From a virus (Duplodnaviria > Heunggongvirae > Uroviricota > Caudoviricetes), in the IMG/VR virus record IMGVR_UViG_646206259_000004: a stretch of DNA of 45,219 bases. One strand, written 5' to 3'. Made by a program: the position numbers and the translations under genes. Of the stretch, positions 3,894 through 19,518 are shown piece after piece. The notes under the pieces are model-generated. The model was given only the letters and a program-made list of their open reading frames with translations. It was not told the DNA's origin and did no database searches. Numbering within the stretch: the stretch's first letter is position 1; each line of letters opens with the position of its first letter.

Positions 3894-3985
3894 TTTGTTT
3901 TACCTCATTACAGATTTAAGGGTGAACAAATCCCTGCCATTGCTGGCATATAAGAATGAAATCGGATGTTTATTACGGAACTGTT

Positions 3986-4186
3986 TTAAAGACCTGCCGG
4001 GATTTCGTTATTATCCTGGTGAATAACTTTATCGACCGGGTAACAGTTACCGGGAATTTTCTGTTCGGTTGCTGCAGTCACACACTCCTGCATTGTCCTG
4101 TGAACACTGACTGCAGTATCAACTGGCTCTCCGGAAACAAGAAAAACTGTCAGAACAAGTGCAAATGCTGTATTCATTGCCAGCAT
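3986..4186 (-). CDS. ydfD: YdfD-like small membrane (lysis) protein
   Basis: 66 aa from the internal ATG with AAGGA RBS; hydrophobic N-terminus (AFALVLTVFLVSG) then ...VSVHRTMQEC...GNCYPVDKVIHQDN..., matching my recollection of Qin YdfD; overlaps the dicB stop by 13 nt. Confidence 0.55.
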   Translation of the reverse strand: MLAMNTAFALVLTVFLVSGEPVDTAVSVHRTMQECVTAATEQKIPGNCYPVDKVIHQDNNEIPAGL

Positions 4187-4362
4187 CCTTTTTGTATCGG
4201 ACGTAAACGGGCCAACATTGAAAGAATGCATATTTTATTTAATAGCTCCCGTTCGTGTTTTCTCTTGTTAATGGCATCTTCAGTAAATACAGGGTTACTG
4301 ATAGTGACACCAATTTCAAAACAACCTTCAGACGTATTAACGTTTGGTAATAACGTTTCCAT
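4174..4362 (-). CDS. dicB: Cell-division inhibitor DicB
   Basis: 62 aa ORF METLLPNVNTSEGCFEIGVTISNPVFTEDAINKRK...LNKICI.SMLARLR...KGC.Q, recognised as DicB; lies immediately downstream of DicF as in Qin. The 97 aa ORF in the track is an upstream over-extension. Confidence 0.8.
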   Translation of the reverse strand: METLLPNVNTSEGCFEIGVTISNPVFTEDAINKRKHERELLNKICILSMLARLRPIQKGCWQ

Positions 4363-4531
4363 TATCGCGTCCTCAACAATGAATTTTGTGATGCGGTGCC
4401 TGGTGCTTCCAGGTGACGTTAACCAGTTAACAATTAACGCCGGATACAGAGAATCCACCCATAACACTGTTTTTGGTTTTAACTGTTCCGCGTGCGCTTA
4501 GCCGCATTCACCGCATCACAAAATTCACTTT

Positions 4532-4589
4532 AAAAAGGGCGGCAGAGCAGTCACGGAGTAAAACTGATACCGCCAAACGTCACCAGAAA
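4532..4589 (-). ncRNA. dicF: DicF small RNA
   Basis: Reverse complement reads TTTCTGGTGACGTTTGGCGGTATCAGTTTTACTCCGTGACTGCTCTGCCGCCCTTTTT, recognised as DicF including its GC hairpin and U-run terminator; sits between the ydfC-like gene and dicB. Confidence 0.75.
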
Positions 4590-4927
4590 ATTGATAACAG
4601 AGGGCGTTGCAGCGGGGTTGTCACTTAAGCGTATGGTCAACCTGACAACCCGGTGTCCTCAACGGTGGAAGGAATAACCCCGCCATACTTACCGCCGCGC
4701 CATTTCGCGGATTGCCACAACCGGAAGCGCACGGTCGACGAAAATTTAACGACAGGCTATCTATGAACCAGCTACCTCGCCGTGCGCTTTCGCGTTATGG
4801 TCTGACTTTTCAGGGAAATATCCTTTCAGTAAACTGTCAGTGCCGGATGCTCACCCGTGTCCGGCGCACGCACTCCACCTCACCCGTGGAGAACTCCTTA
4901 ATTACCAACCTTAGCTTCGTTGGTTAG

Positions 4928-5149
4928 CTATTCACGCGGGTATGTAATCATTCTGGCAATGCTTAATGCCGCTGCTTTTTCCAGATTGGTGATATCCTGC
5001 TCCAGAGCGGACAGATTTTCAGCCTGCTTAGCCCTGGCTTCATTGGCCCATTTCAAATCCTGCGCTGCATTAATTTTCTGGCGCATCCACTCATAAAGTT
5101 CATCATTGGTATAGTCTGGCGCGATGATGACGGGTTCTCGTTTCTGCAT
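4928..5149 (-). CDS. ydfC: YdfC-like small protein
   Basis: 73 aa ORF directly upstream of DicF in the same operon orientation; size and position match Qin ydfC. Confidence 0.55.
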   Translation of the reverse strand: MQKREPVIIAPDYTNDELYEWMRQKINAAQDLKWANEARAKQAENLSALEQDITNLEKAAALSIARMITYPRE

Positions 5150-5178
5150 ACTGATTCCTCGCGGTGCTGCTTCGCTTA

Positions 5179-5307
5179 TCAGCCGTTAGATTTTGCCGAG
5201 CTGGAAAGCGCCTGTTTAAACTCACTGAAGCTGAGAGCTTCTTCGCCTTCGGCAAGGCCTTCGAAGTATTCTTCGTAAGCCTTTTCCATGATTGTGTCGA
5301 AATCCAT
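5179..5307 (-). CDS. ydfB: YdfB-like small protein (42 aa)
   Basis: Short ORF found by hand, below the track threshold: MDFDTIMEKAYEEYFEGLAEGEEALSFSEFKQALSSSAKSNG; fills the gap between the ydfA-like and ydfC-like genes. The track ORF 5103..5312 is the wrong frame. Confidence 0.5.
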   Translation of the reverse strand: MDFDTIMEKAYEEYFEGLAEGEEALSFSEFKQALSSSAKSNG

Positions 5308-5308
5308 A

Positions 5309-5464
5309 TCACTCACCTGAGTTTCTTTCCAGCCAGCGACGGGCACCATTTTCGGTTTTAAACGTTTTGCTTTTGGTATACGTCATCGCGGTGAACGTAC
5401 CGTCCTGGTTGGGGAACACGCCACATACCAGAGATTCGCTGTTGCCAAGATCGATAGTATCCAT
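5309..5464 (-). CDS. ydfA: YdfA-like small protein (51 aa)
   Basis: Internal start MDTIDLGNSE... preceded by a GAGG RBS; 51 aa matches the size of Qin YdfA; first gene downstream of the repressor on the minus strand. Confidence 0.5.
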   Translation of the reverse strand: MDTIDLGNSESLVCGVFPNQDGTFTAMTYTKSKTFKTENGARRWLERNSGE

Positions 5465-5756
5465 GCTGACCTCATTTCCCCTTAACGCCGGGGTAGCGGA
5501 ACAAAAACCTGCTGCATAGTTATTAAAGTTGAACCCTGCCGTCATGTTCTTACGCCTCGGGCTGGCTACTTAACCCCTGACCACTGCCTGGTAACTAGAA
5601 GTATTGCCCTGCATTCTGTGGGGTGGGGAGAGGGAATGAATTAAGTTTAGAAAAATGAACTTTTCAGGTCAATGTTTTTTTATCAAAACATTTTAAGCAG
5701 GCAGCTGTTAAGCCATCACCACGATGGCATACAGTTAATCAAATAGATGAGGTCGG

Positions 5757-6395
5757 TTAAATATTTTGTTGAATTTTAAAGCATACGCCCAATATGCAAG
5801 ATAGATCATCCAGCATAATTGAAGGGTAGCGAGGATTCGTGGGGACTAAAAGAATATCCGGCCCTTCTATCTCCAGTTTACGAATGACAGGTGTTGTGGT
5901 CCCTTTGGGTAAGGCAAGGACAATATTTCCTGGTTGTACGGTTCGATCGGGATCAACAAAAACTGTTGAACCATTTGGGATGGAAACTCCCCCACCAGAT
6001 GTTGACATACTGTCACTCTCTAGAACAACTGCAAAGGTATTGGCCGGGATTTCTCCGACAAGCTGCACACAAGAGGTTATTGAGGAATTTTTCATATAAT
6101 CACTCCAGCTTGCTGCCTGCTGAAGTGATAGTAGCGGAACCGTTTTTATCGGCGGTAAAGATAGATCAAGCGAATCACCTGTATTTAACTCTCCTCCATT
6201 AAGAAGCCAATTTTCGTTTACTTTCAATATTTTTGCCAGTGAACTTATGTAACGCGAGGACGGCGCTCCTCCACCGTTCATCCATTGACTTACGGAGCCT
6301 TTTGATGCGCCAGTGGCATTGACAAGGTCTTTGCCTTTCAGGTTTAGCGCATGCATACGTTGGGTTATGCGTTCAGATATTGTTTGCTTGTTCAT
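5757..6395 (-). CDS. CI-like prophage repressor (HTH plus S24 LexA-like peptidase domain)
   Basis: 212 aa; N-terminal HTH (LKGKDLVNATGASKGSVSQWMNG), C-terminal S24 autocleavage module with the SDSMS serine motif and downstream Lys (VIRKLE); divergent from the cro-like gene. Confidence 0.85.
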   Translation of the reverse strand: MNKQTISERITQRMHALNLKGKDLVNATGASKGSVSQWMNGGGAPSSRYISSLAKILKVNENWLLNGGELNTGDSLDLSLPPIKTVPLLSLQQAASWSDYMKNSSITSCVQLVGEIPANTFAVVLESDSMSTSGGGVSIPNGSTVFVDPDRTVQPGNIVLALPKGTTTPVIRKLEIEGPDILLVPTNPRYPSIMLDDLSCILGVCFKIQQNI

Positions 6396-6486
6396 GTTTT
6401 GATTTTAAAACACAGATGGTTTTGTTTCTTGACTTTCTTTGGTTTTGATTATTAAACTTTTGGCGTTCAGTTTTATGGAGCGACTC
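6396..6486. promoter_or_regulatory. Divergent immunity promoter/operator region between the repressor and cro-like gene
   Basis: 91 bp AT-rich spacer with repeated TTTTGATT motifs, a GTTTTAAAAC palindrome and a TTGACT (-35)-like hexamer followed by TATTAA. Confidence 0.45.
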
Positions 6487-6729
6487 ATGAAAAAATCAGA
6501 AGTATTAGGCTATTTTGGCGGAGTTGTTAAAACAGCCGCAGCTCTAGGAACGTCAAAAACCACAGTCAGCATGTGGGGGGAAGAGGTTCCGTGGAAATGG
6601 GCGTTGCTAATTCAGGCAGTCACTGCCGGGGCGCTCAAATATGAGTTACACATACCGACGGTTGTCATTCCCGGTTCTGATCATAATCCGCCTTCTAACC
6701 AAGGGGGGATTCATGAAAATCAAGCATGA
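6487..6729 (+). CDS. Cro-like / YdaS-like small DNA-binding protein
   Basis: Starts MKKSEVLGYFGG... after a GGAG RBS; divergent from the repressor; HTH-like segment (AAALGTSKTTVSMW). C-terminal extent uncertain because it overlaps the next gene. Confidence 0.5.
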   Translation: MKKSEVLGYFGGVVKTAAALGTSKTTVSMWGEEVPWKWALLIQAVTAGALKYELHIPTVVIPGSDHNPPSNQGGIHENQA

Positions 6730-7138
6730 ACACATCCGCATGGCGATGAATGCCTGGGCGCGTCCTGATGGCGAAAAAGTTCCGGCAGCTGGAATAACCC
6801 AGGCTTATTTTGAGTTGGGTATGACGTTTCCTGAACTGTACGACGACAGCCATCCGGAAGCCCTGGCTCGCAATACCCAGAAAATTTTCCGCTGGATAGA
6901 GAAAGACACCCCTGATGCAGTTGAAAAAATTCAGGCGTTGTTACCAGCGATCGAAAAGGCAATGCCACCTTTGCTGGTGGCCAGAATGCGCAGCCACAGT
7001 TCAGCTTATTTTCGGGAGCTGGTGGAGACGCGGGAGCGACTGGTGAGAGACGCTGATGATTTTGTCGCAGTGGCAATCGCCGGTTTCAATCAGATGAACC
7101 GTGGTGGCCCGGCAGGAAATGCTGTGGCAGTACATTGA
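6713..7138 (+). CDS. CII-like / YdaT-like regulator
   Basis: 141 aa from MKIKHEHI... with a strong AAGGGGGG RBS; second gene of the early rightward operon; N-terminus resembles Rac YdaT from memory. Confidence 0.5.
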   Translation: MKIKHEHIRMAMNAWARPDGEKVPAAGITQAYFELGMTFPELYDDSHPEALARNTQKIFRWIEKDTPDAVEKIQALLPAIEKAMPPLLVARMRSHSSAYFRELVETRERLVRDADDFVAVAIAGFNQMNRGGPAGNAVAVH

Positions 7139-7203
7139 CTGACAATAGCCATATCGAATCGCTTCCGGCAACTCGTGAGTAAAAAGATTCGGTATCAGAA
7201 GAG

Positions 7204-8280
7204 GTGAGTATGGCTAACGCCTGGCTCAGATTATGGCATGACATGCCAAATGACCCTAAGTGGCGAACAATTGCCAGGGTGTCAGGGCAGCCAATTGCAA
7301 CAGTGATGGCAGTGTATATCCACCTCCTGGTGAGCGCGTCACGAAATGTCACGCGAGGTCACATTGATGTCACGACAGAAGATTTGGCAAGTGCGCTCGA
7401 CGTGACAGAAGAGGTAATTGATTCAATTTTGCAGACGATGCAGGGGCGGGTACTTGATGGTGATTTAATCACTGGATGGGAAAAACGCCAGGTGCTTAAA
7501 GAGGACAACGGCAATATTTCGCAAACCGCAAAATCTCCTGCAGAGCGCAAGAGGGCGCAGCGAGAGAGGGAAAGAAAGCGGGAACAAAATGGCGATTGTC
7601 ACGGCGCGTCACGAAATGTCACGCACATGTCACGACGAGTCACGACAGATAAAGATACAGATAAAGATACAGATCAAGAAGATCAAAACACTATGGTCCA
7701 TGGCGTAAAAAACGCCACGAACCAGGCAGGGGATGTTCAGACCGTCAATCTTGGTCAGCCAGCAGGCACGACACCGGAAGCCGATTCAGCGTATGCGCTG
7801 AAAGCCGATTCGGGCGCTGTGCAGCAGGTGATGACCGCAAGGCCGGAGCAATCACACCAACTGCAGCAGCCCGAAGCCGATTCCGCCATTCAGCGGGAAG
7901 CCGATCGGGTAGTCCCGGAAAACACCGGGCAGTCTGTGGGACGAGTGGATTATCCGGATGTGTTCGAACAGGTCTGGCGGGAGTACCCGTTGCGTGCTGG
8001 GGCAAACCCGAAGAAATCCGCTTTCAGTGCCTGGAAGGCCAGATTACGCGAGGGGGTGCCACCAGAGGCCATGCTGGATGGCGTGAGGCGTTACGCAAGA
8101 TACTTGGCGGCTACCGGGAAAACGGGAACGGAATTTGTTCAGCGAGCGACGACGTTTTTTGGACCGGACCGGAATTTTGAGAACCCCTGGTTGCTCCCGG
8201 TAAGCGGCACGAACAACCAGCGTTGTGTGAATCATATTTCTGAACCGGATAACGAAATTCCGCCGGGCTTCAGGGGGTAA
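7204..8280 (+). CDS. Replication-initiator-like protein (O-like) containing iteron-like repeats
   Basis: 358 aa ORF in the replication slot; carries internal phased GTCAC(G) repeats and an adjacent A-rich tandem element, as lambda O carries ori. Confidence 0.5.
   Translation: MSMANAWLRLWHDMPNDPKWRTIARVSGQPIATVMAVYIHLLVSASRNVTRGHIDVTTEDLASALDVTEEVIDSILQTMQGRVLDGDLITGWEKRQVLKEDNGNISQTAKSPAERKRAQRERERKREQNGDCHGASRNVTHMSRRVTTDKDTDKDTDQEDQNTMVHGVKNATNQAGDVQTVNLGQPAGTTPEADSAYALKADSGAVQQVMTARPEQSHQLQQPEADSAIQREADRVVPENTGQSVGRVDYPDVFEQVWREYPLRAGANPKKSAFSAWKARLREGVPPEAMLDGVRRYARYLAATGKTGTEFVQRATTFFGPDRNFENPWLLPVSGTNNQRCVNHISEPDNEIPPGFRG
7335..7690. repeat. Iteron-like GTCACG repeats (two clusters, about 10 bp phasing) plus A-rich tandem repeat: putative ori
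   Basis: GTCAC at 7338, 7348, 7358, 7369 and again at 7598, 7608, 7618, 7629, 7639; followed by GATAAAGATACA x2 and an A-rich stretch (7647-7690). Confidence 0.5.
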
Positions 8281-8320
8281 GTGTTAATTTCTGGTCATGA
8301 GGTAATTTTCAGGAGGGCTT

Positions 8321-8743
8321 GTGGCAAAAGTTTTTACACAAGAAGAGCGGGAAAAAATTAAAGGACAGGTTGTTGAACTCGTACGCCAGAGTGGGCGTGA
8401 GACGTTACGGCAACTGGAAGTCAAGACAGGTGCGACAAGATATCTGATGAGCGTTCTCGCAAGAGAGCTGGTTGCCAGCGGCGATGTATGCAACTCTGGT
8501 TACGGGTTATTCCCGTCTGAACAGGCGCGTAAGGACTGGCAAAATGCCCGTAAAAAGCTCTCAAGGGCAAAGCTGAAGAAACCATCTGCGGTTGATCCGG
8601 ACCTTATCTGGTCATTACCTGACGGAGAAATACGTCGCTACGACAGGCGTCAGAACATAATCTGTCGCGAGTGCCGGAAGAGTGAAGTTATGCAGCGCAT
8701 ATTGTCGTTTTATCAGGGTGATGTTCGGTATTTATTGAAGTGA
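8321..8743 (+). CDS. Hypothetical phage protein
   Basis: 140 aa ORF with GTG start 5 nt after an AGGAGG RBS; basic C-terminus with a CRECRK motif; no family recognised. Confidence 0.5.
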   Translation: MAKVFTQEEREKIKGQVVELVRQSGRETLRQLEVKTGATRYLMSVLARELVASGDVCNSGYGLFPSEQARKDWQNARKKLSRAKLKKPSAVDPDLIWSLPDGEIRRYDRRQNIICRECRKSEVMQRILSFYQGDVRYLLK

Positions 8744-8874
8744 CGAGATTAAAGTGCATTAGTTCAGATGCAAATTGACATTTTGTGGCACAGGGTAGAG
8801 CTAGCGTGGTTGTCCGCTTTGTGCCAATAGCGGACATTGCTGGCTCATGGTATGTTAGTTTAAGGAGGCAGGTT

Positions 8875-9897
8875 ATGCCCTGTATTTCGCTGTGGTATAA
8901 TAGTTGCGCAATTGATACAAGGGAGCGTTACATCGTGAAAATTGTTTTCGAGGTTAATGGAAAGAAAGTTCCACTAAAATCTTTAAAATACATAAGCAAA
9001 AAAGATCAACTCGAAGTAATGAAAAACTGGTTCTTTGAAAACTTTGAAGATCCGGCAAATGCTTGTCCGTATGAAAGTAGAGAAGGTGGCTATGCTTACA
9101 TATATGGCGGGCCGTATGATGCGAGCGAAGAACTACAATCCATCTTCGGTCAATATGTTAAATCTGAGTATATTGAGGAATTAGTAGATGAATTACAAAC
9201 ACAATGTTTTGACTGGTCTGGAAACTCAAATAATATAGATGATTGGTACGATGATGATATCTACGACGCTGTAACGTCTTCCGGTAATCCGTATTTAAAA
9301 TTCATTGATAATATCGATAAAATAAAAAAACTTGCAAAAGATAAAACTGAACAACAGCAAAAAAACCACTTGCTTAGTTTGCTCTACACGAATGTTATTA
9401 CAGCTTTGGAAACGCTTTATGTTGAGCTATTCATTAATTCTATAGAGAAAGATGATGTCTACATAGCCAATTGTATAGAAAAAGGTAAGACTGAATTTAA
9501 AGTAAGCAAAGATATTGCTGCGTTGCCTTTCAAGGGTGAACCCATCGAGAAAATTAGGGGAGAGCTAATCAGGTCAATCAAGGAACACTTGATCAGTGCA
9601 AGCTGGCATAGCACTAAAAAGGTAATCGACCGCTATGAAGCTACATTCGATATAAAAGTACAAAAAGACTGTCCGATAGAAGCTATTGAATTGGCAACCC
9701 TCAATCGAAATCACTTAGTGCATCGTGGTGGAAAGGATAAAGAAGGGAACCTCGTAGTGATTACAGACCAGGATCTTGAAACGCTGATTGAAAATGCATC
9801 GAACCTGGCAATTATGCTCTACAACAGTTTAAATGTAGCAACGAATAAAACCACCATTTTGCAACCAGATGACAAACCGTTCATTCATGAATTTTAA
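8875..9897 (+). CDS. Hypothetical protein, gene A of AT-rich cassette (possible HEPN-like C-terminal region)
   Basis: ATG at 8875 six nt after AGGAGG; alternative in-frame GTG at 8935 downstream of an extended -10-like TGGTATAAT (8892-8900). Strongly AT-rich codon usage unlike flanking genes. C-terminal LNRNHLVHRGG fits an Rx4H HEPN-like motif (by eye only). Confidence 0.6.
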   Translation: MPCISLWYNSCAIDTRERYIVKIVFEVNGKKVPLKSLKYISKKDQLEVMKNWFFENFEDPANACPYESREGGYAYIYGGPYDASEELQSIFGQYVKSEYIEELVDELQTQCFDWSGNSNNIDDWYDDDIYDAVTSSGNPYLKFIDNIDKIKKLAKDKTEQQQKNHLLSLLYTNVITALETLYVELFINSIEKDDVYIANCIEKGKTEFKVSKDIAALPFKGEPIEKIRGELIRSIKEHLISASWHSTKKVIDRYEATFDIKVQKDCPIEAIELATLNRNHLVHRGGKDKEGNLVVITDQDLETLIENASNLAIMLYNSLNVATNKTTILQPDDKPFIHEF

Positions 9898-9912
9898 TAG
9901 CGCAGGTCATAC

Positions 9913-10914
9913 ATGGATATTCGCACACGAAAGACAAAATTTTTAGAGTCGTTAGATTCAACTGAAGTGATACGCAAAGCAGTAAGTCTCGCTATAGATT
10001 GCATTATTGATAATCATAATAGTAATGAAGATACCCCCTTAGTTATTACCAGCTATGATGATCTCTGTAGAATCCAGGTGCTAAATTATGTACAGGAGTT
10101 TTGCGAAGCTGCATTCCCTGATATGGATGAATATTACTTTAGTCCTAACATACTTCGCATCAACGGCAAGACTAGTGAAGAAGCTTGTATTAACTTAATT
10201 AAACTCTTAAGAAGTACAAAAGGCATGCTATTCTGGTCCGATGCCCCATCGTGGTTCGCTAGCCTCCCCGACGGATTATTCCATGTTGTTAACATTGATC
10301 AAAAAATCGTTACTCGCGGCCTTAATAAGAAAAACTCTAAGCCGACAATAATCAATAAAGATTACAGTGTAGATACACTACTATCAGAGCTATTTTTGAA
10401 TGGCGCACACATGGAGCAACCCAACGTACACAACGTTTCTGAGGGAAACATGAAGTTCTATGATGAATGCCATGCTGGATTAATCAGACCAATACCCGCT
10501 CCAATAGGCGCGTCATACGATGAAGAGATCACAATTAATTCTCCAGATTGGCAAAAGCTCGCGTGTGTAGCTTTACGCCGCTATCAGTCGAAGGAATGTC
10601 ATGACGGAATGCAATGGGATACAACCGATCATGGTTGGACTGATGTAATCGCGTATCCATTCGTCGAAGAAATACAATCAATGGATAATAGTGGTTATCG
10701 ACAATGTTTAGTTGGGCTGGTCACAATAAACAATTCAAATGCAAATTCTCCGTACCTATCTACCGTTTGGATACATCCATTTTATCGCAGGAGAGGGTTA
10801 TTAAGTAAGTTATGGCCAAAATTACAAGAGTTATATGGAAGTAACTTCGAAATTGAGCGACCTAATGAAAATATGAAAGCATTTCTGAAAAGTGCGAAAC
10901 ACGCAGATTACTAA
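9913..10914 (+). CDS. Hypothetical protein, gene B of AT-rich cassette (possible GNAT-like C-terminal fold)
   Basis: 333 aa ORF 15 nt downstream of gene A, same strand and AT-rich composition; C-terminal VWIHPFYRRRGLLSKLW resembles GNAT motif A (by eye only). Confidence 0.6.
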   Translation: MDIRTRKTKFLESLDSTEVIRKAVSLAIDCIIDNHNSNEDTPLVITSYDDLCRIQVLNYVQEFCEAAFPDMDEYYFSPNILRINGKTSEEACINLIKLLRSTKGMLFWSDAPSWFASLPDGLFHVVNIDQKIVTRGLNKKNSKPTIINKDYSVDTLLSELFLNGAHMEQPNVHNVSEGNMKFYDECHAGLIRPIPAPIGASYDEEITINSPDWQKLACVALRRYQSKECHDGMQWDTTDHGWTDVIAYPFVEEIQSMDNSGYRQCLVGLVTINNSNANSPYLSTVWIHPFYRRRGLLSKLWPKLQELYGSNFEIERPNENMKAFLKSAKHADY

Positions 10915-11230
10915 TTTATGAATCAGTCTGTGGAGTTAGGGTTGGTGTCAACAAGTAGGGTAAGAGCCTCAACGTGATGCTATGCCGACCTGCTCCCTGA
11001 GAATTCACACAGAAGGCTGCTAGCAATGTCTGCAGATCGCTCAAAGCGGACTAGAAGGTTAGCTTGCGTCGGACTTGGCGTATTTAAAGAAGTGCTGGTG
11101 GTGACTGGTTGTTGTGTTCCATTTCTACAGAACAAAATCACAGAAACTATACCCAATAGTTATATTGAATCAATGATGAGACAGCCTCATATTTATCAGA
11201 ACTGGTGTACGTCCAATACAGGAGGTTGTC

Positions 11231-11320
11231 GTGCTGGTTCTCAAATGTGCGCTAGCTATTGCGGCTGTAATGGCAATTTATTGTCTTGCTGTTGTTCTTA
11301 TGGATCGCCTTTCTGATTGA
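11231..11320 (+). CDS. Candidate small hydrophobic peptide (29 aa)
   Basis: GTG start 5 nt after a perfect AGGAGG; VLVLKCALAIAAVMAIYCLAVVLMDRLSD is a single predicted transmembrane helix; overlaps the 3' end of the 96 aa Cys-rich ORF in another frame. Confidence 0.3.
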   Translation: MLVLKCALAIAAVMAIYCLAVVLMDRLSD

Positions 11321-11474
11321 TTTTATATTGGCGAGGTGACGGGAGTTAAGTAGAATTGCTGCGGGTGCTTGAGGCTATCTGCCTCAGGCATGAACACCAA
11401 AGGCAGATAGAGAAAAGCCCCAGTTAATATTACGCGTCCTGCAAGACGCTTAACATTAATCTGAGGCTCAATCT

Positions 11475-11687
11475 ATGAACGGCAAATCTAGGTTAGCCTC
11501 TTACGTGCCGAAAGGCAAGGAGAAGCAGGCTATGAAGCAGCAAAAGGCGATGTTAATCGCCCTGATCGTCATCTGTTTAACCGTCATAGTGACGGCACTG
11601 GTAACGAGGAAAGACCTCTGCGAGGTACGAATCCGAACCGGCCAGACGGAGGTCGCTGTCTTCACAGTTTACGAACCTGAGGAGTAA
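11475..11687 (+). CDS. mok: Mok-like reading frame (N-terminally extended Hok frame)
   Basis: 70 aa ORF containing Hok in frame, as in mokC/hokC loci. Confidence 0.55.
   Translation: MNGKSRLASYVPKGKEKQAMKQQKAMLIALIVICLTVIVTALVTRKDLCEVRIRTGQTEVAVFTVYEPEE
11532..11687 (+). CDS. hok: Hok/Gef family type I toxin
   Basis: 51 aa MKQQKAMLIALIVICLTVIVTALVTRKDLCEVRIRTGQTEVAVFTVYEPEE, a near-match to the Hok/Gef/RelF family; mRNA-like context with upstream inverted repeats and a downstream fold-back/terminator. Confidence 0.85.
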   Translation: MKQQKAMLIALIVICLTVIVTALVTRKDLCEVRIRTGQTEVAVFTVYEPEE

Positions 11688-11755
11688 GAGACCCGGCGAG
11701 GGAGAAATCCCTCGCCACCTCTGATGTGTCAGGCATCCTCAACGCACCCGCACGT

Positions 11756-11782
11756 AACCCGCTTCGGCGGGTTTTGTTTTTT
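11756..11782 (+). terminator. Intrinsic terminator / fbi-like 3' hairpin of the hok mRNA
   Basis: AACCCGCTTCGGCGGGTTTTGTTTTTT: GC stem with short loop followed by a T-run. Confidence 0.6.
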
Positions 11783-11854
11783 CCTGGCATTCTGGTTTAC
11801 AATTCGCACGCCAGCCTGAACAACTGGCACCTGCTGCGCCAGCAGAGACAACCG

Positions 11855-12133
11855 ATGGCGCACGATACCAAATTACACAATTCTGATGATTCTGCCGTCT
11901 TTGCCAGCAGGCACGGGCGGCGTTCCCGCACTTTCAAATCTGACTGGTTCCAGCATCCCCCATGCACTGAAGAACAGGCCGAGTGGCTAATTCAGTGCTA
12001 CCGCAGACACGGATACGAGATTAAGAAAGCCCTCAGCCTCGATTATCGTCACTGGATAATCTCCGTCAGGCTTCCTTACTCCGAACGATCACCGCGTCCG
12101 TCCCGCACATTCCAGCAACGCATCTGGAGGTAA
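11855..12133 (+). CDS. Hypothetical protein (92 aa)
   Basis: ATG downstream of the hok terminator; its stop lies 2 nt before the DUF968 GTG start, suggesting translational coupling; the 135 aa track ORF probably over-extends into the hok 3' UTR. Confidence 0.4.
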   Translation: MAHDTKLHNSDDSAVFASRHGRRSRTFKSDWFQHPPCTEEQAEWLIQCYRRHGYEIKKALSLDYRHWIISVRLPYSERSPRPSRTFQQRIWR

Positions 12134-12134
12134 C

Positions 12135-13181
12135 GTGCGAGTATTACTTCGACCTGTTCTGGTACCGGAACTCGGGCTGGTGATCGTTAAGCCGGGCCGT
12201 GAATCCATGCCGGTATTCCACAATACCCGGGTACTGGTGGAGCCGGAACCGAAAAGCATGCGTAATCTGCCGTCCGGGGTTGTTCCTGCCGTTCGCCAGC
12301 CGCTAGTGGAAGACAAAACATTGCTGCCGTTTTTCAGTAACGCACGGGTGATTCGTGCTGCTGGTGGTGCTGGTGCATTGTCTGACTGGCTGTTGCGCCA
12401 TATTAAATCCTGCCAGTGGCCACACGGCGATTATCATCACAGCGAAACCGTCATTCACCGTTATGGTACCGGCGCAATGGTGTTGTGCTGGCACTGCGAC
12501 AACCAGCTGCGTGACCAGACATCCGAATCACTCGAGCAACTTGCTCATCAAAACCTGTCAGCATGGATGATTGACGTCATACTCCATGCAATGAATGGCT
12601 CGCAGGAACGGGAATTATCGCTGGCTGAATTATCCTGGTGGGCGGTCCGCAATCAGGTGGCGGACGCGCTACCGGAAGCGGTATTACGTCGTTCGCTGGG
12701 GTTGCGTGCGGAAAAAATCCGCTCAATGTACCGTGAAAGCGACATCGTACCGGGAGAGCAGACCGCCACCAGCATACTGAAGCAGCGCACAAAAAATCTT
12801 GCGCCGCTGCCTCACGCCCACCAGCAAAACCCGCCACAGGAAGAGACGGTGGTCAGCATTGCCGTTGATCCTGAGTCTCCGGAATCTTTCATGAAACGAC
12901 CTAAACGTCGCCGCTGGGTTAACGAGAAATACACACGCTGGGTGAAGACACAGCCGTGTGCGTGTTGTGGTAAGCCAGCCGACGATCCCCATCACCTGAT
13001 TGGTCATGGTCAGGGCGGAATGGGGACAAAATCTCACGATATTTTCACGCTACCGCTGTGTCGGGAGCATCACAACGAGCTTCATGCGGATCCTCTGGCG
13101 TTCGAAGAAAAGCATGGTTCTCAGGTTGATTTAATTTTTCGTTTTCTTGATCACGCCTTTGCAACTGGCGTGCTTGGGTAA
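12135..13181 (+). CDS. DUF968-like protein (YdfU-like) with C-terminal HNH-like zinc-binding motif
   Basis: 348 aa; GTG start after GGAGG; C-terminal CACCGKPADDPHHLIGHG...LPLCREHHNELH; size and position upstream of rusA match Qin ydfU. Confidence 0.65.
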   Translation: MRVLLRPVLVPELGLVIVKPGRESMPVFHNTRVLVEPEPKSMRNLPSGVVPAVRQPLVEDKTLLPFFSNARVIRAAGGAGALSDWLLRHIKSCQWPHGDYHHSETVIHRYGTGAMVLCWHCDNQLRDQTSESLEQLAHQNLSAWMIDVILHAMNGSQERELSLAELSWWAVRNQVADALPEAVLRRSLGLRAEKIRSMYRESDIVPGEQTATSILKQRTKNLAPLPHAHQQNPPQEETVVSIAVDPESPESFMKRPKRRRWVNEKYTRWVKTQPCACCGKPADDPHHLIGHGQGGMGTKSHDIFTLPLCREHHNELHADPLAFEEKHGSQVDLIFRFLDHAFATGVLG

Positions 13182-13193
13182 AAGAGGTGACTG

Positions 13194-13568
13194 ATGCTCA
13201 TAGATTTGGTTTTACCTTACCCGCCGACGGTGAACACTTACTGGCGACGCCGTGGCAGCACATATTTTATCTCGGAGGAGGGAAAGCGTTATCGCCGGGC
13301 TGTGGCGCTTATTGTTCGCCAGCAGCGGCTGAAATTAAGCCTGTCCGGAAGGCTGGCGATAAAGGTGATTGCAGAGCCACCGGATAAGCGTCGTCGCGAC
13401 CTGGACAATATCCTGAAAGCACCGCTGGATGCGCTGACGCATGCGGGAGTGTTAATGGACGATGAGCAGTTTGATGAAATCAATATCGTTCGTGGTCAGC
13501 CAGTATCTGGTGGACGTATGGGGGTGAAGATTTACCCCATAATGCATGAAGAGCAGGTCAAAAAATGA
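13194..13568 (+). CDS. rusA: Holliday junction resolvase RusA
   Basis: 124 aa; LPYPPTVNTYWRRRG... and RRRDLDNILKAPLDAL motifs characteristic of RusA. Confidence 0.85.
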   Translation: MLIDLVLPYPPTVNTYWRRRGSTYFISEEGKRYRRAVALIVRQQRLKLSLSGRLAIKVIAEPPDKRRRDLDNILKAPLDALTHAGVLMDDEQFDEINIVRGQPVSGGRMGVKIYPIMHEEQVKK

Positions 13569-14386
13569 AACTGGAAGATTTACCGAAATACTACTCCCCA
13601 AAATCCCCTGGCCTGACCGATGCATCGGCCTCAACGTCAAAAGATGCGCTGAGTATCACTGATGTGATGGCCGCGCAGGGCATGACACAGAATCGGGCTG
13701 AGATGGGGTTTTCTGCGTTCCTGGGGAAAATGGGCATCAGTATGAATGACAGGGCGCGGGCAACAGAATTACTGGCAGATTATGCACTCAGTCGGTGCGA
13801 TCGTGTGGCGGCGTTGAGAAAACTTCCGGCAGAAATAAAACCGGTAGTGATGCGCATTATGGCTTCGTATGCGTTTGAAGATTATGCCCGTAGCGCGGCG
13901 AGCAAAAAACAGTGCCCTTGCTGTCACGGAAAAAAATTTATTGAAAGCGAGGTTTTTACAAACAAGATCCAGTATCCGGATGGTAAGCCACCAGTGTGGG
14001 CAAAGTGCACAAAAGGCGTGTATCCGTCTTACTGGGAAGAATGGAAAAAAGTCAGGGAGGTGGTAAAAGTTGCCTGTCCGGAGTGTGGCGGAAAGGGTGA
14101 GGTTTCCACCGCCTGTAAGGATTGCCGTGGGCGTGGTGTCGCCATTCATCGTGAAGAGTCGGTAAAACGTGGTATGCCTGTTATCAGAGATTGCCAGCGT
14201 TGTGGTGGTCGTGGCTGTGAAAGGCTGCCATCAACGGAGGCATTTAATGCCATATGCAAAGTGACGAGTGCTATCACGCTTGATACGTGGAAAAAATCAG
14301 TGAAACGCTTTTACGATACGTTGGTGGTTCGGTTTGACATTGAAGAGGCATGGGCGGAGCGGCAGTTAAAGAGGGTAACGCGATAG
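13565..14386 (+). CDS. Late gene antiterminator Q
   Basis: 273 aa, multiple CxxC zinc-finger motifs (CPCCHGK, CPECGGKG, CKDCRGRG, CQRCGGRG); overlaps the rusA stop; followed by promoter/terminator-like signals. Confidence 0.8.
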   Translation: MKLEDLPKYYSPKSPGLTDASASTSKDALSITDVMAAQGMTQNRAEMGFSAFLGKMGISMNDRARATELLADYALSRCDRVAALRKLPAEIKPVVMRIMASYAFEDYARSAASKKQCPCCHGKKFIESEVFTNKIQYPDGKPPVWAKCTKGVYPSYWEEWKKVREVVKVACPECGGKGEVSTACKDCRGRGVAIHREESVKRGMPVIRDCQRCGGRGCERLPSTEAFNAICKVTSAITLDTWKKSVKRFYDTLVVRFDIEEAWAERQLKRVTR

Positions 14387-14390
14387 TGTT

Positions 14391-14420
14391 GTTGATTTTT
14401 CCCGAATCTGTGGTAAATTT
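14391..14420 (+). promoter_or_regulatory. Candidate late promoter pR' (Q-dependent)
   Basis: TTGATT (-35-like) and TGgTAAATT (extended -10-like) immediately after Q; exact spacing uncertain. Confidence 0.4.
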
Positions 14421-14468
14421 GCTCTAACGATGGGCGTTTTATGCCTGACGTTAGAAGATTTTTTACAC

Positions 14469-14490
14469 CCCGCCGCCTGGCGGGTTTTTT
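14469..14490 (+). terminator. tR'-like intrinsic terminator
   Basis: CCCGCCGCCTGGCGGGTTTTTT hairpin plus T-run about 80 nt downstream of the Q stop. Confidence 0.55.
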
Positions 14491-14610
14491 ATGACTGAAA
14501 TCGCGTCAGTACAGTAAACGCGCTGGTGGCGGTGAATACCTGTCTTTCAGCTTGCTGGCTTTTTCGACAAGAGTTATTGGTGTGTCACGTTAACCGGAAA
14601 AGGAAAAGAC

Positions 14611-14808
14611 ATGCTAAAACAGCAGGATATGACAGAAACCGCCAGAGTGGTGTTTAATGAATTAAGCGTTACCGACCCGGCGACAGTCGGGGAGATAGCG
14701 CAGAATACTTACCTTTCACGCGAACGCTGCCAGTTAATACTGACTCAGCTGGTTATGGCGGGTCTGGCAGACTATCAGTTCGGTTGTTACAGACGCCTTC
14801 CGCAGTGA
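14611..14808 (+). CDS. Hypothetical small protein (65 aa)
   Basis: ORF with AAAGGAAAAG RBS-like sequence; lies between tR' and the methyltransferase. Confidence 0.45.
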   Translation: MLKQQDMTETARVVFNELSVTDPATVGEIAQNTYLSRERCQLILTQLVMAGLADYQFGCYRRLPQ

Positions 14809-14958
14809 AGGCTTTTTTATTTGTGGTAAATGGGCGGCTGGTGGGTGTTAGGGGCACCCACCAGCCATCTGCTCATGCGTCCGGATCACAAGCAAACCTC
14901 AGGCCCACTGCTTTGCGCAAAAGCAGAATGAGCCTATCAGAGACAGGCTTAATGATCC

Positions 14959-16008
14959 ATGCTTAATACTGTAAAAATATCCAGTTGTGAGTTAATCAAC
15001 GCCGACTGCCTGGAATTTATCCGGTCGTTACCCGAAAATTCTGTTGACCTGATAGTCACGGACCCGCCGTACTTTAAAGTGAAGCCTGAGGGCTGGGATA
15101 ACCAGTGGAAGGGCGACGATGATTACCTGAAGTGGCTGGACCAGTGTCTGGCGCAGTTCTGGCGGGTGCTGAAACCTGCCGGAAGTCTTTACCTGTTCTG
15201 TGGTCATCGCCTGGCATCTGATATCGAAATCATGATGCGTGAACGCTTCAGTGTGCTGAACCATATTATCTGGGCGAAGCCGTCCGGACGCTGGAACGGA
15301 TGCAACAAGGAAAGCCTGCGGGCGTATTTCCCCGCCACAGAGCGCATTCTGTTCGCGGAACATTATCAGGGGCCGTATCGTCCGAAAGATGCCGGGTATG
15401 CGGCGAAGGGCAGTGCACTGAAACAGCATGTGATGGCCCCGCTGATTTCTTACTTTCGTGATGCGCGCGCGGCCCTGGGGATAACGGCAAAACAGATTGC
15501 AGATGCCACAGGAAAGAAAAACATGGTGTCGCACTGGTTCAGTGCCAGTCAGTGGCAGCTACCGAATGAAAGCGATTATCTGAAATTACAGGCGCTGTTT
15601 GCCCGGGTGGCAGAAGAGAAGCATCGGCGTGGTGAACTGGAAAAGCTCCACCACCAGCTGGTGGATACGTATACCTCACTGAACCGGCAGTATGCGGAGC
15701 TGCTGAGTGAATATAAACATCTGCGGCGGTATTTTGGCGTGACGGTGCAGGTGCCGTATACCGATGTGTGGACGCATAAACCGGTGCAGTTCTATCCCGG
15801 GAAACATCCGTGCGAAAAACCGGCAGAAATGCTGCAGCAGATAATCAGCGCAAGTAGCCGTCCTGGTGATCTGGTTGCGGATTTTTTCATGGGGTCGGGT
15901 TCAACGGTAAAAGCGGCGATGGCACTGGGGCGTCGTGCGATTGGTGTTGAGCTGGAGACCGGACGTTTTGAGCAGACAGTCAGGGAAGTTCAGGATTTAA
16001 TCGTTTGA
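14959..16008 (+). CDS. Orphan DNA methyltransferase (DPPY motif; N6-adenine or N4-cytosine class)
   Basis: 349 aa; LIVTDPPYF catalytic motif and C-terminal FFMGSGST SAM-binding motif; no adjacent restriction endonuclease gene. Confidence 0.85.
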   Translation: MLNTVKISSCELINADCLEFIRSLPENSVDLIVTDPPYFKVKPEGWDNQWKGDDDYLKWLDQCLAQFWRVLKPAGSLYLFCGHRLASDIEIMMRERFSVLNHIIWAKPSGRWNGCNKESLRAYFPATERILFAEHYQGPYRPKDAGYAAKGSALKQHVMAPLISYFRDARAALGITAKQIADATGKKNMVSHWFSASQWQLPNESDYLKLQALFARVAEEKHRRGELEKLHHQLVDTYTSLNRQYAELLSEYKHLRRYFGVTVQVPYTDVWTHKPVQFYPGKHPCEKPAEMLQQIISASSRPGDLVADFFMGSGSTVKAAMALGRRAIGVELETGRFEQTVREVQDLIV

Positions 16009-16057
16009 AACGGATGAGATTGCAGAATTAATTACGCACCATTATTATTCTGCTCCC

Positions 16058-16133
16058 GGCCCTTTAGCTCAGTGGTGAGAGCGAGCGACTCATAATCGCC
16101 AGGTCGCTGGTTCAAATCCAGCAAGGGCCACCA
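16058..16133 (+). tRNA. ileZ: tRNA with CAU anticodon (Ile2/lysidine type or Met; ileZ-like)
   Basis: Hand-folded cloverleaf: acceptor GGCCCTT/AAGGGCC, D-arm GCTC/GAGC, anticodon loop CTCATAA, T-loop TTCAAAT, 3' CCA encoded. Confidence 0.75.
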
Positions 16134-16140
16134 TCACATA

Positions 16141-16217
16141 CCGCCATTAGCTCATCAGGAAAGAGCGCCAGCCTTCGAAGCTGGTTGCGCGGAGTTCGGG
16201 TCCCCGAAGGCGGTCCA
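16141..16217 (+). tRNA. argN: tRNA-Arg (UCG anticodon; argN-like), atypical stems
   Basis: Cloverleaf folds with anticodon loop CTTCGAA and T-loop TTCGGGT, but with one mismatch each in the acceptor and T stems; needs tRNAscan confirmation. Confidence 0.5.
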
Positions 16218-16230
16218 TTATCTGTATCCT

Positions 16231-16307
16231 GCGTTGTTAGCTCAGCCGGACAGAGCAATTGCCTTCTAAGCAATCGGTCACTGGTTCGAATCCAGTACAA
16301 CGCGCCA
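16231..16307 (+). tRNA. argO: tRNA-Arg (UCU anticodon; argO-like)
   Basis: Acceptor GCGTTGT/ACAACGC, anticodon loop CTTCTAA, T-loop TTCGAAT, 3' CCA encoded. Confidence 0.75.
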
Positions 16308-16352
16308 CACTTATTTTCCCTGGCTCGCTTTTGCGGGCTTTTTTTTAAATGT

Positions 16353-16566
16353 CTCACAATTCAGGCGGTTGACTGTTGTCTGGTTTGCGGGGAGTTTGTT
16401 AAAAGAAACTGGCATGGTGAATCCCCCTGTGCGGAGGGGCAATCAGCGAGTAGGTATATGGGATAATCGCGGATTCAGGTGCTGGTACTGAATTCACCGG
16501 GAGGCACCCGGCACCATGCAATGGCACATAGCGCCACTCTCCAGCCCCTCTCCGGAGGGGCTTTTC
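16353..16566 (+). repeat. Structured non-coding module, copy 1 (candidate sRNA with own promoter-like motifs and intrinsic terminator)
   Basis: CTCACAATTCAG..GTTGAC...GGTGAATCCCCCTGTGCGGAGGGGC...(T)ATAAT...CACCGGGAGGCACCCGGCACCATG...CCCCTCTCCGGAGGGG+T-run; shares these blocks with copy 2. Confidence 0.4.
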
Positions 16567-16820
16567 TGTGCCGGATACATCACAGTTTCTGGAACCTTAG
16601 GTACTACAGTATCAGTCAGGGTGCTATATTTTCAGATGTGATGAAAGCCTGTCAGCAGGCAGGGCGTATCGGAAATGACCCAGTAGAGAAAACGTTGACT
16701 CAGATACCGGTGCTGAGTTACCGGGAAACCGGCATCACATGACCGCTATCCTTCCAGGCCCATCCGCTCCGGTGGGCCTTTTTACTGCAGAAAACAGGTT
16801 CCCCGTTAAATGCTATGTTG

Positions 16821-17055
16821 CTCACAATTCAGTAAGTTGACAGTTGCCTGTCAGACTGGGCATTTGTTAAAAAAATTTCGCATGGTGAATCCCCCTGAGC
16901 GGAGGGGCGACTGGTGACGGTATAATCTCTGATTATCAAAACGAGAATGACGCGGGTTTAGTGGCACCGGGCTGAACTCACCGGGAGGCACCCGGCACCA
17001 TGTGCATGATGATACAGATACGCGGCTTTAGCCCCTCTCCGGAGGGGTTTTCTTG
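16821..17055 (+). repeat. Structured non-coding module, copy 2
   Basis: Same conserved blocks as copy 1 in the same order, ending in the CCCCTCTCCGGAGGGG hairpin plus T-run; 468 bp downstream of copy 1. Confidence 0.4.
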
Positions 17056-17282
17056 TGGGCAAAAAAAGCCCGCGCTGGGAGACGCGGGCGGCAAGGAATA
17101 AACAATAAAACGTGAAGTAATATTTCAGCTGGCGAATAATACCCCATAGTAATCACTCTGCGCAACTGCGCGGTCTTTTTCGAATTGCGGGCTGTCGTCT
17201 CTCTTCTGCCATTGTCCTGTAACTTCCGGACTTCAGCCCGCTCCTTATTTTACTCACAATATTATCCCGGCCGGGAGGATTC

Positions 17283-17510
17283 ATGGCATTTAAACACTAT
17301 GACGTGGTCAGGGCGGTATCGCCGTCAGACCTTGCGAAACGACTGACACAAAAACTGAAGGAGGGCTGGCAGCCGTTTGGTAGTCCGGTGGCCATAACCC
17401 CTTATACCCTGATGCAGGCGATTGCAGCAGAAGGTGATGTGGTGGTCAGTGGTGCAACTGAGCCGGATTGGTACTACGTCATCGTACTGGCCCGGCATTC
17501 CAGGCCATAA
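17283..17510 (+). CDS. Hypothetical phage protein upstream of the lysis cassette
   Basis: 75 aa ORF with GGAGG RBS 5 nt before the ATG. Confidence 0.5.
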   Translation: MAFKHYDVVRAVSPSDLAKRLTQKLKEGWQPFGSPVAITPYTLMQAIAAEGDVVVSGATEPDWYYVIVLARHSRP

Positions 17511-17778
17511 AAGACAGTCTGGCAGTGGGACTAAATGCACTGACGCTGATGGATATTACCAAAAATGTAACGTATGGCGTTGAGATAGAAAGTCTGGCGC
17601 TGGAGATAAATGCACCGGCATCATCATAAAAAGTGAGCCAGTCAAATGGAAGGTATCGTTAAACTCACCGGTAGTGTCAGTGGGTCGTCTGAGACGCTTG
17701 CATGAGTTATCAGAGCCATCAGTAGTTAACTGGTGGCTTTTTTATTGTTTTCAGCTTCCGGATAACGGGAGACGGGGT

Positions 17779-17994
17779 ATGGACCAGATGGAAAAAATCA
17801 CAACAGGTGTGTCATACACCACGTCAGCGGTGGGAACGGGCTACTGGTTCCTGCAGTTGCTGGACAGGGTTTCCCCGTCTCAGTGGGCGGCAATAGGCGT
17901 GCTGGGGAGTCTGCTGTTTGGGCTGCTGACATATCTGACTAACCTGTATTTCAAAATCAGAGAGGACCGTCGTAAGGCGGCACGGGGAGAGTAA
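17779..17994 (+). CDS. S: S21-type pinholin (class II holin, dual-start)
   Basis: [71 protein letters not shown] closely resembles phage 21 S; Met1/Met4 dual start; the track ORF over-extends upstream. Confidence 0.85.
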
Positions 17995-17998
17995 TTCA

Positions 17999-18343
17999 AT
18001 GACTCAAAACTATGAACTGATTGTGAAAGGGATCCGCAATTTTGAGAATAAAGTTACGGTAACTTTAGCATTACAGGACAAAGAACGCTTTGACGGTGAA
18101 ATTTTTGACCTGGACATCTCGCTGGACCGTGTTGAAGGTGCTGCGCTGGAGTTTTATGAGGCAGCGGCCAGAAGGAGCATCAGACAGGTCTTCCTGGATG
18201 TCGCTGCCGGGTTATGTGAAGGGGATGAGCAGTCGCCGGAAAAGCGCCCCGTAATTTTAGAGGCGCAGAATGTATGGATAACCTACAAAGGAAAGCTACC
18301 GGGAAGGATTACTGGTTCCCTGAAGACTCCGCCGAAATGGTAG
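17999..18343 (+). CDS. Hypothetical protein inserted between holin and endolysin
   Basis: 114 aa ORF starting 5 nt after the holin stop; no family recognised; weak RBS. Confidence 0.45.
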   Translation: MTQNYELIVKGIRNFENKVTVTLALQDKERFDGEIFDLDISLDRVEGAALEFYEAAARRSIRQVFLDVAAGLCEGDEQSPEKRPVILEAQNVWITYKGKLPGRITGSLKTPPKW

Positions 18344-18581
18344 TTTTGCCAGCATAATTTTCTTCCAGCAATGCCGCCAGCCACTTGAAAGAATTTTGTT
18401 GTTCCTGGGACCATTTGGGGTTGCGTGATTCAAAATGAATGGATGCCAGCGTTGGCAGCATTTGCTCCCTGGGAATTGATAAGGCCAGATGTGAAAATGC
18501 AACAGTGAGGGCATTTACATCATCCCGAAGCCTGGAAATGCAGTCGAGCAACTCCTGTAGAGAAATGGTGCTATTGTCCAT
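18309..18581 (-). CDS. Hypothetical protein (minus strand) inside the lysis cassette
   Basis: 90 aa ORF with a good AAGAGGA RBS on the minus strand; convergent with and overlapping the previous ORF by 35 nt. Confidence 0.5.
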   Translation of the reverse strand: MDNSTISLQELLDCISRLRDDVNALTVAFSHLALSIPREQMLPTLASIHFESRNPKWSQEQQNSFKWLAALLEENYAGKTTISAESSGNQ

Positions 18582-18686
18582 AAATAATCCTCTTGATTGT
18601 CTTTACCTTTTCCCCGCCTGATTCAACAGGCCGGGACAGATAAACATATCCAGGGTTCAGAAACCGATAAATCCTGATAAATATCC

Positions 18687-19517: not shown

Positions 19518-19518
19518 A

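Follow-up and report, generated by a model that had tools for sequence, protein, structure and literature searches.

A conserved 29-codon open reading frame upstream of hok in Escherichia and Shigella lambdoid prophages is a putative gene for a single-helix membrane peptide

Introduction

Two open reading frames (ORFs) overlap in different registers immediately upstream of a hok toxin gene in a 45,219-nucleotide (nt) stretch of viral DNA (Caudoviricetes; IMG/VR record IMGVR_UViG_646206259_000004; hereafter the window), and the locus raises the question of which of them is a gene and whether its product is a toxin or a membrane protein of another kind. The shorter frame, of 29 codons, is hydrophobic and preceded by a Shine-Dalgarno (SD) sequence; the longer one, of 96 codons, ends in a Cys-rich tail. 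A reading of the sequence alone (hereafter the original prediction) had held that only one of the two is likely to be real, and had compared the short one with type I toxins or small membrane peptides. Here, we present comparative evidence which points to the 29-codon ORF as a genuine protein-coding gene, and we weigh what its product may do. The elements in question are as follows:

11220 to 11225, plus strand: Shine-Dalgarno sequence AGGAGG, followed by the 5-nt spacer TTGTC and then the GTG at 11231
11231 to 11320, plus strand: 29-codon ORF with a GTG start and a TGA stop (11318-11320), predicted to encode the single-helix membrane peptide MLVLKCALAIAAVMAIYCLAVVLMDRLSD
11026 to 11316, plus strand: 96-amino-acid Cys-rich ORF (UTI89_C1473) with an ATG start, read here as a frame left open by chance across non-coding DNA and the small ORF

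Translation of the 29-codon ORF gives (M/V)LVLKCALAIAAVMAIYCLAVVLMDRLSD. Both the arrangement of SD, GTG and hydrophobic frame and the overlap with a longer frame carrying the quoted Cys-rich tail were found as originally described, the 96-codon frame being one base out of register with the small ORF (its codons start at 11230).

Results

Frame-specific purifying selection in the 29-codon ORF

By themselves, the SD and the small ORF are within chance: AGGAGG followed by a start codon occurs six times in the window versus 3.4 times expected, and the ORFs of 20 or more codons that overlap the local 3-kb stretch number 51. Significance comes from comparative evidence. We aligned seven copies from differing contexts, including those of E. 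coli B, EcPF15 and the Shigella plasmid pCP301, and the differences among them fell mainly at third positions of the 29-codon frame, with AGGAG, retained in all divergent copies of this alignment, and the TGA stop invariant.

For the selection test, copies from viral and metagenome contigs were collected by means of an anchor outside the ORF, consisting of the invariant CATATTTATCAG box and the SD, because an earlier pattern placed within the ORF had constrained its last eight codons. In 190 of the 199 copies collected with this anchor, the ORF was exactly 29 codons long. Substitutions were inferred by parsimony on a neighbour-joining tree of 34 distinct ORF sequences (codons 2-29), and approximate P values were taken from the binomial distribution against the synonymous-site fraction. 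The 29-codon frame showed 86 inferred substitutions, 42 of them synonymous and 44 non-synonymous (omega ~0.37, P=5.8e-6). Values for the other two frames were omega ~0.87 and P=0.33, and 10 of the changes would create stops in one of them. The hok gene, used as a positive control and read in its own frame, gave omega ~0.53 (P=0.018), a weaker signal than that of the small ORF. The comparison of synonymous and non-synonymous changes, proposed in the original prediction as a check on the two frames, was therefore decided in favour of the 29-codon frame, the 96-codon frame evolving neutrally.

In line with this, the non-synonymous changes in the small ORF were conservative (A/V/I/T, D/E, R/H, L/F). 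The copy in pCP301, a Shigella invasion plasmid (pINV), has ATG in place of the GTG start at 79.5% nucleotide identity and retains the SD. The most divergent genomic copy (L256; peptide MLAALKGFVAILAVVAIYCLVVVLMDRLSD) carries a one-codon insertion and many synonymous changes, and retains the SD (here TGGAGA), the GTG, the frame and the tail. Divergent relatives also retain the peptide motif, e.g., MLIIKGVLAIVIVVAIYCLVVTLWERLSD.

The 96-codon frame behaved differently in each of these respects. Its omega was ~0.87-1.0 over the overlap region and 0.69 (P=0.19) in its 5' half. Only about 17 of 76 distinct upstream variants keep it open for at least 93 codons, most having 23-47 codons, and the 101 members of its database cluster vary in length between 47 and 104 amino acids. 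In the copies of E. coli B, EcPF15 and pINV, homology stops within the ORF and its 5' half is missing, and in pCP301 the frame is also disrupted by a 1-nt deletion. The frame had no match in Pfam, NCBIfam, PHROGs or PADLOC, and its ATG is preceded only by a weak, far-spaced GAAGG, which agrees with the original remark that a convincing ribosome-binding site is lacking. The description of this ORF as annotated held for the original GenBank record of UTI89 (UTI89_C1473), as it does for those of APEC O1 and S88; the entry has been dropped from current RefSeq, where UTI89 has neither ORF. These early annotations and the 101 database relatives are what would speak for the 96-codon frame as the true gene, with the small ORF as an accidental overlap. 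Set against neutral evolution, unstable length, the missing or broken frame in other copies, the weak ribosome-binding site and the lack of a family, that proposal is scarcely credible and has effectively been refuted already. The unusual length of the spurious frame is explained by the conserved non-coding block (11025-11160) over which it begins. Together, the comparative data indicate that the 29-codon ORF is a real protein-coding gene and that the overlapping 96-codon frame is not, so that the expectation of a single real frame was borne out by frame-specific purifying selection and by the conserved length, SD and start of the shorter one.

Properties of the predicted peptide

The 27 distinct peptides follow the motif M-L-[VA]-L-K-C-x-L-A-I-x-A-V-[MV]-A-I-Y-C-L-[AV]-[VI]-V-L-[MT]-[DE]-[RH]-[LF]-S-D, in which L8-A9-I10, I16-Y17, L19 and D29 are strictly conserved and A12, V13 and C18 almost so. 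Conserved features comprise K5, the Y17-C18 pair and the acidic [DE]-[RH]-[LF]-S-D tail. The grand average of hydropathy is 1.81, and the best 19-residue window, which starts at residue 6, has a mean hydropathy of 2.7; charged residues lie on both sides of the hydrophobic segment (K5 on the N-side, D25, R26 and D29 on the C-side). The composition is that of a single-pass protein, with one hydrophobic segment of ~19-23 residues and charged flanks. One transmembrane helix is predicted at residues ~2-24, and by the positive-inside rule it would lie N-in/C-out in the inner membrane. The conserved helix positions (L8-A9-I10, A12-V13, I16-Y17-C18-L19) and the tail would fit specific packing better than generic membrane damage.

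No match to the peptide was found in Pfam or NCBIfam (E<=10), PHROGs or PADLOC. An origin as a Hok-derived paralogue was rejected, the hhalign probability to Hok being 0.7% and no match being detected to Hok/Gef (PF01848), a family marked by a conserved periplasmic domain with Cys, to which the adjacent 51-amino-acid product belongs. Identity with YnfS of the K-12 Qin prophage, likewise of 29 amino acids, was also rejected, the two being unrelated. A literature search retrieved no paper with the peptide or the UTI89 locus tags.

Expression signals of the small ORF and the adjacent hok locus

The signals that surround the small ORF, together with the hok locus downstream of it, are:

11165 to 11193, plus strand: putative sigma-70 promoter of the small ORF (-35 TTGAAT at 11165-11170, 17-nt spacer, -10 CATATT at 11188-11193)
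11328 to 11356, plus strand: hok promoter (TTGGCG-17-TAGAAT), starting 8 nt past the small-ORF stop
11363 to 11537, plus strand: hok mRNA leader and sok antisense region (Rfam RF01794, 113.3 bits, E=8.8e-27)
11532 to 11687, plus strand: coding sequence of a hokD-type toxin of 51 amino acids (Pfam PF01848, HOK_GEF, E=2.6e-22; RefSeq hokD)
11756 to 11783, plus strand: hok intrinsic terminator, the first terminator downstream of the small ORF

Homology among the unrelated contexts of E. coli B, EcPF15 and pCP301 starts exactly at the -35 TTGAAT, which reads TTGAAT or TTGAAG in 172 of 197 copies, and the -10 CATATT sits inside the invariant CATATTTATCAG box. The small ORF therefore appears to possess a sigma-70-like promoter of its own in most copies, with a predicted transcription start site (TSS) at ~11200 and a leader of ~30 nt. 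Terminator prediction found none between 11320 and 11756, with one weak chance hit inside the small ORF; since no terminator separates the small ORF from hok, read-through is likely, and the small-ORF transcript probably continues through the hok promoter as far as the hok terminator.

The unit from the -35 to the stop codon is flanked by an imperfect, AT-rich 13-nt inverted repeat (ATATTGAATCAAT at 11162-11174 and ATTGATTTTATAT at 11316-11328; 85% complementary), which may be due to chance.

That a bona fide hok locus lies next to the small ORF was confirmed by the family, Rfam and RefSeq assignments given above. The RF01794 match begins 7 nt past the hok -10. Within the leader, the hok frame extends upstream of its ATG (11532) to a further ATG at 11475, from which an extended Hok of 70 amino acids would be made (11475-11687, plus strand); gene callers sometimes predict this form, as in the case of the HOK_GEF protein of 70 amino acids in L256. 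In plasmid R1, mok is of the out-of-frame type, and, because the ATG at 11475 is in frame with hok, it does not represent a mok of that kind. The 3' end of the hok mRNA with its terminator (11696-11777, plus strand) gave a sub-threshold match to Rfam IsrK, a Salmonella prophage small RNA (sRNA), at 27.8 bits versus a gathering threshold of 50.

Copies of the small ORF without hok

About 90% of small-ORF copies precede a hok leader. In the EcPF15-type context (L006, 10 copies), hok is replaced, the ORF being followed by other sequence and then by a convergent gene, and the ORF, promoter and SD are intact. On pINV, hok is deleted, and again the small ORF, its SD and its putative promoter are intact. 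These copies show that the small ORF is independent of hok.

In the pINV relic (pCP301, L004, 2558-2790; pWR100, CP037924, ~90830-91040), the small ORF is intact and starts with ATG; it is followed by the hok promoter and by ~60-100 nt from the beginning of the hok leader, but not by hok, and the relic stops 291 nt before the start codon of icsP/sopA. Transcription of icsP has been mapped to TSSs at 90709 and 90726, downstream of the relic, which therefore lies within the long icsP regulatory region, a region studied for its control by VirB and H-NS. A derivation of the icsP promoter from the hok-promoter relic was considered and rejected, as both icsP TSSs lie past the end of the hok-leader homology.

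Distribution and annotation

Thousands of E. coli genomes carry the block that precedes hok, and the pINV plasmids of Shigella have it at 79.5% identity. Among 5426 complete E. coli genomes, 1895 (~35%) had the SD together with the ORF, in up to three copies each; carriers include uropathogenic and avian pathogenic strains, E. coli B/BL21 and the E. coli type strain. Four temperate phages, all viable, also carry the small ORF (Tritos, Evi, mEp460_ev081 and HannyBb). A profile search of 1.84 billion representative proteins returned only 16 relatives, the named ones being from Escherichia, and all 33 named matches of a protein homologue search were likewise from Escherichia; overall, the named database relatives belong to Escherichia or Shigella. 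A scan of one genome per species, in which the conserved C-terminal codons were required, recovered only E. albertii, E. ruysiae, Shigella flexneri and some contigs of metagenome-assembled genomes (MAGs) labelled as other genera. The latter are taken as contamination, except for a Rickettsiales MAG match, which is without the upstream anchor and looks like a chance match. The gene is confined to Escherichia/Shigella lambdoid phages and prophages.

Several pipelines have called the same ORF (WP_000960667.1, the 'membrane protein' entries of REL606/BL21, and the Prokka entry CP037924_00134). In RefSeq, it is annotated in few genomes, as WP_000960667.1 in strain D6, and is mostly blank. The E. 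coli B copy, NZ_CP117044.1 complement(1619979..1620068), encodes MLVLKCTLAIVAVMAIYCLVIVLMDHLSD. In K-12, hokD of the Qin prophage directly follows relE, without the small ORF, and many other hok loci, e.g., those of O157 phages, have only its last eight codons left, fused to the hok promoter, which points to a frequent recombination junction inside the 3' end of the ORF.

Prophage setting

The sequence of the locus is identical to positions 1399470-1400370 of E. coli UTI89 and to those of many further B2 strains. The host element is a Rac/Qin-like lambdoid prophage, in which a YdaT-family gene, replication genes, a DUF977 gene and two cargo genes (8935-9897 and 9913-10914) are followed by a 618-bp gap that is unannotated in RefSeq and contains the small ORF, and then by hokD, a small hypothetical gene, a DUF968 gene, rusA and Q. 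The cassette is placed at the left end of the nin region, with a variable cargo slot immediately to its left.

The cargo of this slot, which extends from the DUF977 gene to the cassette, differs by prophage (8935-10914 in the window, compared with L002, L003, L005, L006, L007 and L258): two unknown proteins are encoded here, and an nSTAND1 NTPase, a DUF4145 protein, QueH, an acetyltransferase or a reverse-strand protein of 444 amino acids elsewhere. The slot looks like a moron/defence hotspot with the cassette as its right border. PADLOC models gave no matches for the 29-amino-acid peptide or the 333-amino-acid neighbour (9913-10914), and only weak ones (best E=0.009) for the 320-amino-acid neighbour (8935-9897). 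With no known defence model matched and no fixed upstream neighbour across copies, the small ORF did not qualify as a component of an anti-phage defence system.

A further element accompanies the cassette:

11025 to 11160, no strand assigned: conserved non-coding block, whose left boundary is unchanged after each of four different upstream genes

This block of ~135 bp is found with the cassette in 148 of 199 copies. A conserved hairpin occupies 11029-11052 within it, and a Chi site 11094-11101. Neither strand of the block showed covariation, and searches for an Rfam match and for a coding signal were negative. The window contains 16 Chi sites (GCTGGTGG; 1394-19561), whereas shuffled sequence would be expected to give 1.24. 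None lies beyond the first 20 kb, where they average roughly one every 1.2 kb, and 12 of the 16 are on the plus strand. Such a density is several times the E. coli average. The Chi site nearest to the small ORF is the one at 11094-11101, which is invariant within the block.

Toxin or hok-associated element: weighing the alternatives

The type I toxin suggested in the original prediction requires an RNA antitoxin, for which one candidate promoter was found:

11320 to 11349, minus strand: candidate antisense promoter (TTAACT-18-TAAAAT, 9/12) facing into the small ORF

According to this explanation, the peptide would be the toxin of a new type I pair, in which a cis-antisense RNA, starting from the minus-strand promoter just downstream (11349 to 11320), covers the ORF and blocks its translation or triggers mRNA decay, so that a two-toxin cassette would be formed with hok/sok. 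The peptide has the size, hydrophobicity and strong SD of toxins such as TisB, ZorO, Ibs and the Ldr type, it is physically linked to another type I system, and the -10 of the candidate promoter reads TAAAAT in 93 of 197 copies, including the one in the window. However, in another 93 of the 197 it reads TGAAAT, TGTAAT or TGCAAT, with G in place of the essential A at position 2, and the candidate is probably non-functional as a conserved element. The antisense strand is unstructured (z=+0.70) and has no terminator, an Rfam scan found no family over 11100-11360, and no direct repeat or complementarity that would indicate a divergent, trans-pairing sRNA links the upstream block to the mRNA. On the sense strand, the leader of ~30 nt is short and the RNA folds no better than shuffles (minimum free energy z=-0.78). 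A pairing of the SD with CCUUUCUG, at the 3' end of the ORF, was predicted by RNAalifold, and all of its columns are invariant; a compensatory change was seen in one of 36 pairs, and two of the seven SD pairs break in L256. Such a long-range helix may sequester the SD, but covariation does not support it. No toxin-family profile matched the peptide. Finally, the ORF, SD and promoter are intact both where the sequence downstream has been replaced (by what we read as the terminator of a convergent gene) and on pINV, where no partner promoter is evident. Without an antidote, a strongly toxic peptide would be unlikely to persist in this way in copies lacking hok or a partner. Thus, of the two classes originally named, the membrane peptide stood, by composition, and the type I toxin is not supported: a small hydrophobic ORF of 29 residues with a single predicted helix is present, and a conserved RNA antitoxin with its own promoter and complementarity, in cis or divergent, was not found. 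We consider this explanation unlikely.

Equally unlikely, in our judgement, is that the ORF is no gene of its own and belongs to hok as an upstream element, either as a leader modulating the hok promoter or as conserved promoter-upstream DNA. The close spacing fits such a role, in that the small-ORF stop lies 8 nt before the hok -35 with no terminator between them and most copies precede a hok leader; moreover, ORF-less hok loci keep the last 23 nt of the ORF (11298-11320) at the promoter, which suggests that this stretch serves hok. Constraint on DNA or RNA, however, yields neither a synonymous excess in one frame nor conservative replacements, and conservation of a 20-residue hydrophobic helix with a charged tail is not what one would expect of a peptide that served purely as a leader. 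The peptide is also conserved in the copies that lack hok (L006 type and pINV), and most hok loci, among them those of K-12 Qin and O157 phages, work without the ORF.

Discussion

The reading that we consider probable is that the 29-codon ORF is the gene for a single-helix inner-membrane accessory protein of lambdoid prophages, and that the 96-codon ORF is spurious. The gene would be expressed from its own putative promoter and by read-through of the early operon, and the transcript would pass into hok and end at the terminator at 11756-11783. The peptide would insert into the inner membrane as a single helix, N-in/C-out, where the helix might bind and modulate a larger membrane protein, or self-associate, as known bacterial small membrane proteins do. 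Given the conserved helix residues and the copies that survive without an RNA or protein partner, such a mode of association with a partner or with itself appears most likely, and an RNA-controlled killer less so.

Several observations weigh against the accessory-protein reading. The P values of the selection test are approximate, since the sequences are related and recombining, although the contrast between the frames and its direction are clear in spite of this. The last codons overlap the stretch upstream of the hok -35, and nucleotide conservation there may partly be for hok. The putative promoter of the small ORF matches the consensus at 8 of 12 positions, which is under the threshold of the promoter scan, and it is missing from L256, where the ORF follows an ORF6N-domain gene after 49 nt. 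In the differential RNA sequencing map of pWR100 in Shigella M90T (PMC7132871, supplementary file 4), no TSS is present at the predicted small-ORF site (~91027), nor at the hok-promoter relic (~90864), and the icsP TSSs at 90709 and 90726 are listed; this negative result is weak, the copy lying in H-NS-silenced plasmid DNA. Lastly, the many hok loci without the full ORF, as in O157 phages and K-12 Qin, mean that the gene is dispensable.

A more far-reaching and, in our view, unlikely proposal is that the peptide is the first member of a family of prophage membrane effectors functionally coupled to hok/sok, either as a second, differently controlled killer peptide or as a membrane partner that tunes Hok. 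The cassette would then be a two-component, membrane-targeting module for maintenance or abortive infection, and hok would not act in it alone. In its second-killer version, it would involve control by a cis-antisense RNA in the TAAAAT allele of the window, or expression only via read-through from the phage early promoter.

Small membrane proteins of enterobacteria have 20-50 residues, one helix, their own SD and a short leader, and are often missed by annotation. We compared the peptide with KdpF, CydX, AcrZ, MgtS/MgtR, PmrR, YohP and the prophage-borne YnfS, with which it has in common polar or charged helix flanks and packing faces of small residues (Ala); it differs in having no sequence similarity to any of them and in its restriction to Escherichia/Shigella lambdoid prophages. 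Like the type I toxins (Hok/Gef, TisB, ZorO, ShoB, Ibs, Ldr, DinQ), it is small and hydrophobic, with a strong SD, and lies beside hok/sok; TisB and ZorO also have 29 amino acids. In contrast to them, it has no conserved antisense or divergent sRNA, no long structured 5' untranslated region or processing signals, no Pfam or NCBIfam match (E>10) and no relationship to Hok by hhalign, and it exists in intact stand-alone copies. Its tail is acidic, whereas most type I toxins have basic or polar tails.

With prophage morons such as lambda bor and lom, the small gene shares a putative promoter of its own, a position between phage modules and beside a variable cargo slot, and a presence that varies among otherwise similar prophages, although it is much smaller, has no terminator of its own and is tied to hok/sok. 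It also resembles mok in being a short frame associated with hok loci. The mok frame overlaps hok and controls its translation; the small ORF, unlike mok, is located entirely upstream of the hok promoter and of the mRNA start (11363), has no overlap with hok and is retained in copies without it. On present evidence, we regard the small ORF as an uncharacterised new case of a familiar class, the small membrane proteins, rather than as a new kind of system.

Genome annotation systematically under-represents small membrane proteins, and this ORF is a case in point, being mostly blank in RefSeq, with older records showing the spurious 96-amino-acid protein in its place. The corrected annotation is a concrete gain. 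Its absence from the hokD locus of K-12 Qin may explain why small-protein surveys based on K-12 are silent about it. Should a membrane target or cooperation with Hok prove true, the peptide would be a new component of a textbook toxin-antitoxin locus and a new prophage modulator of host membranes.

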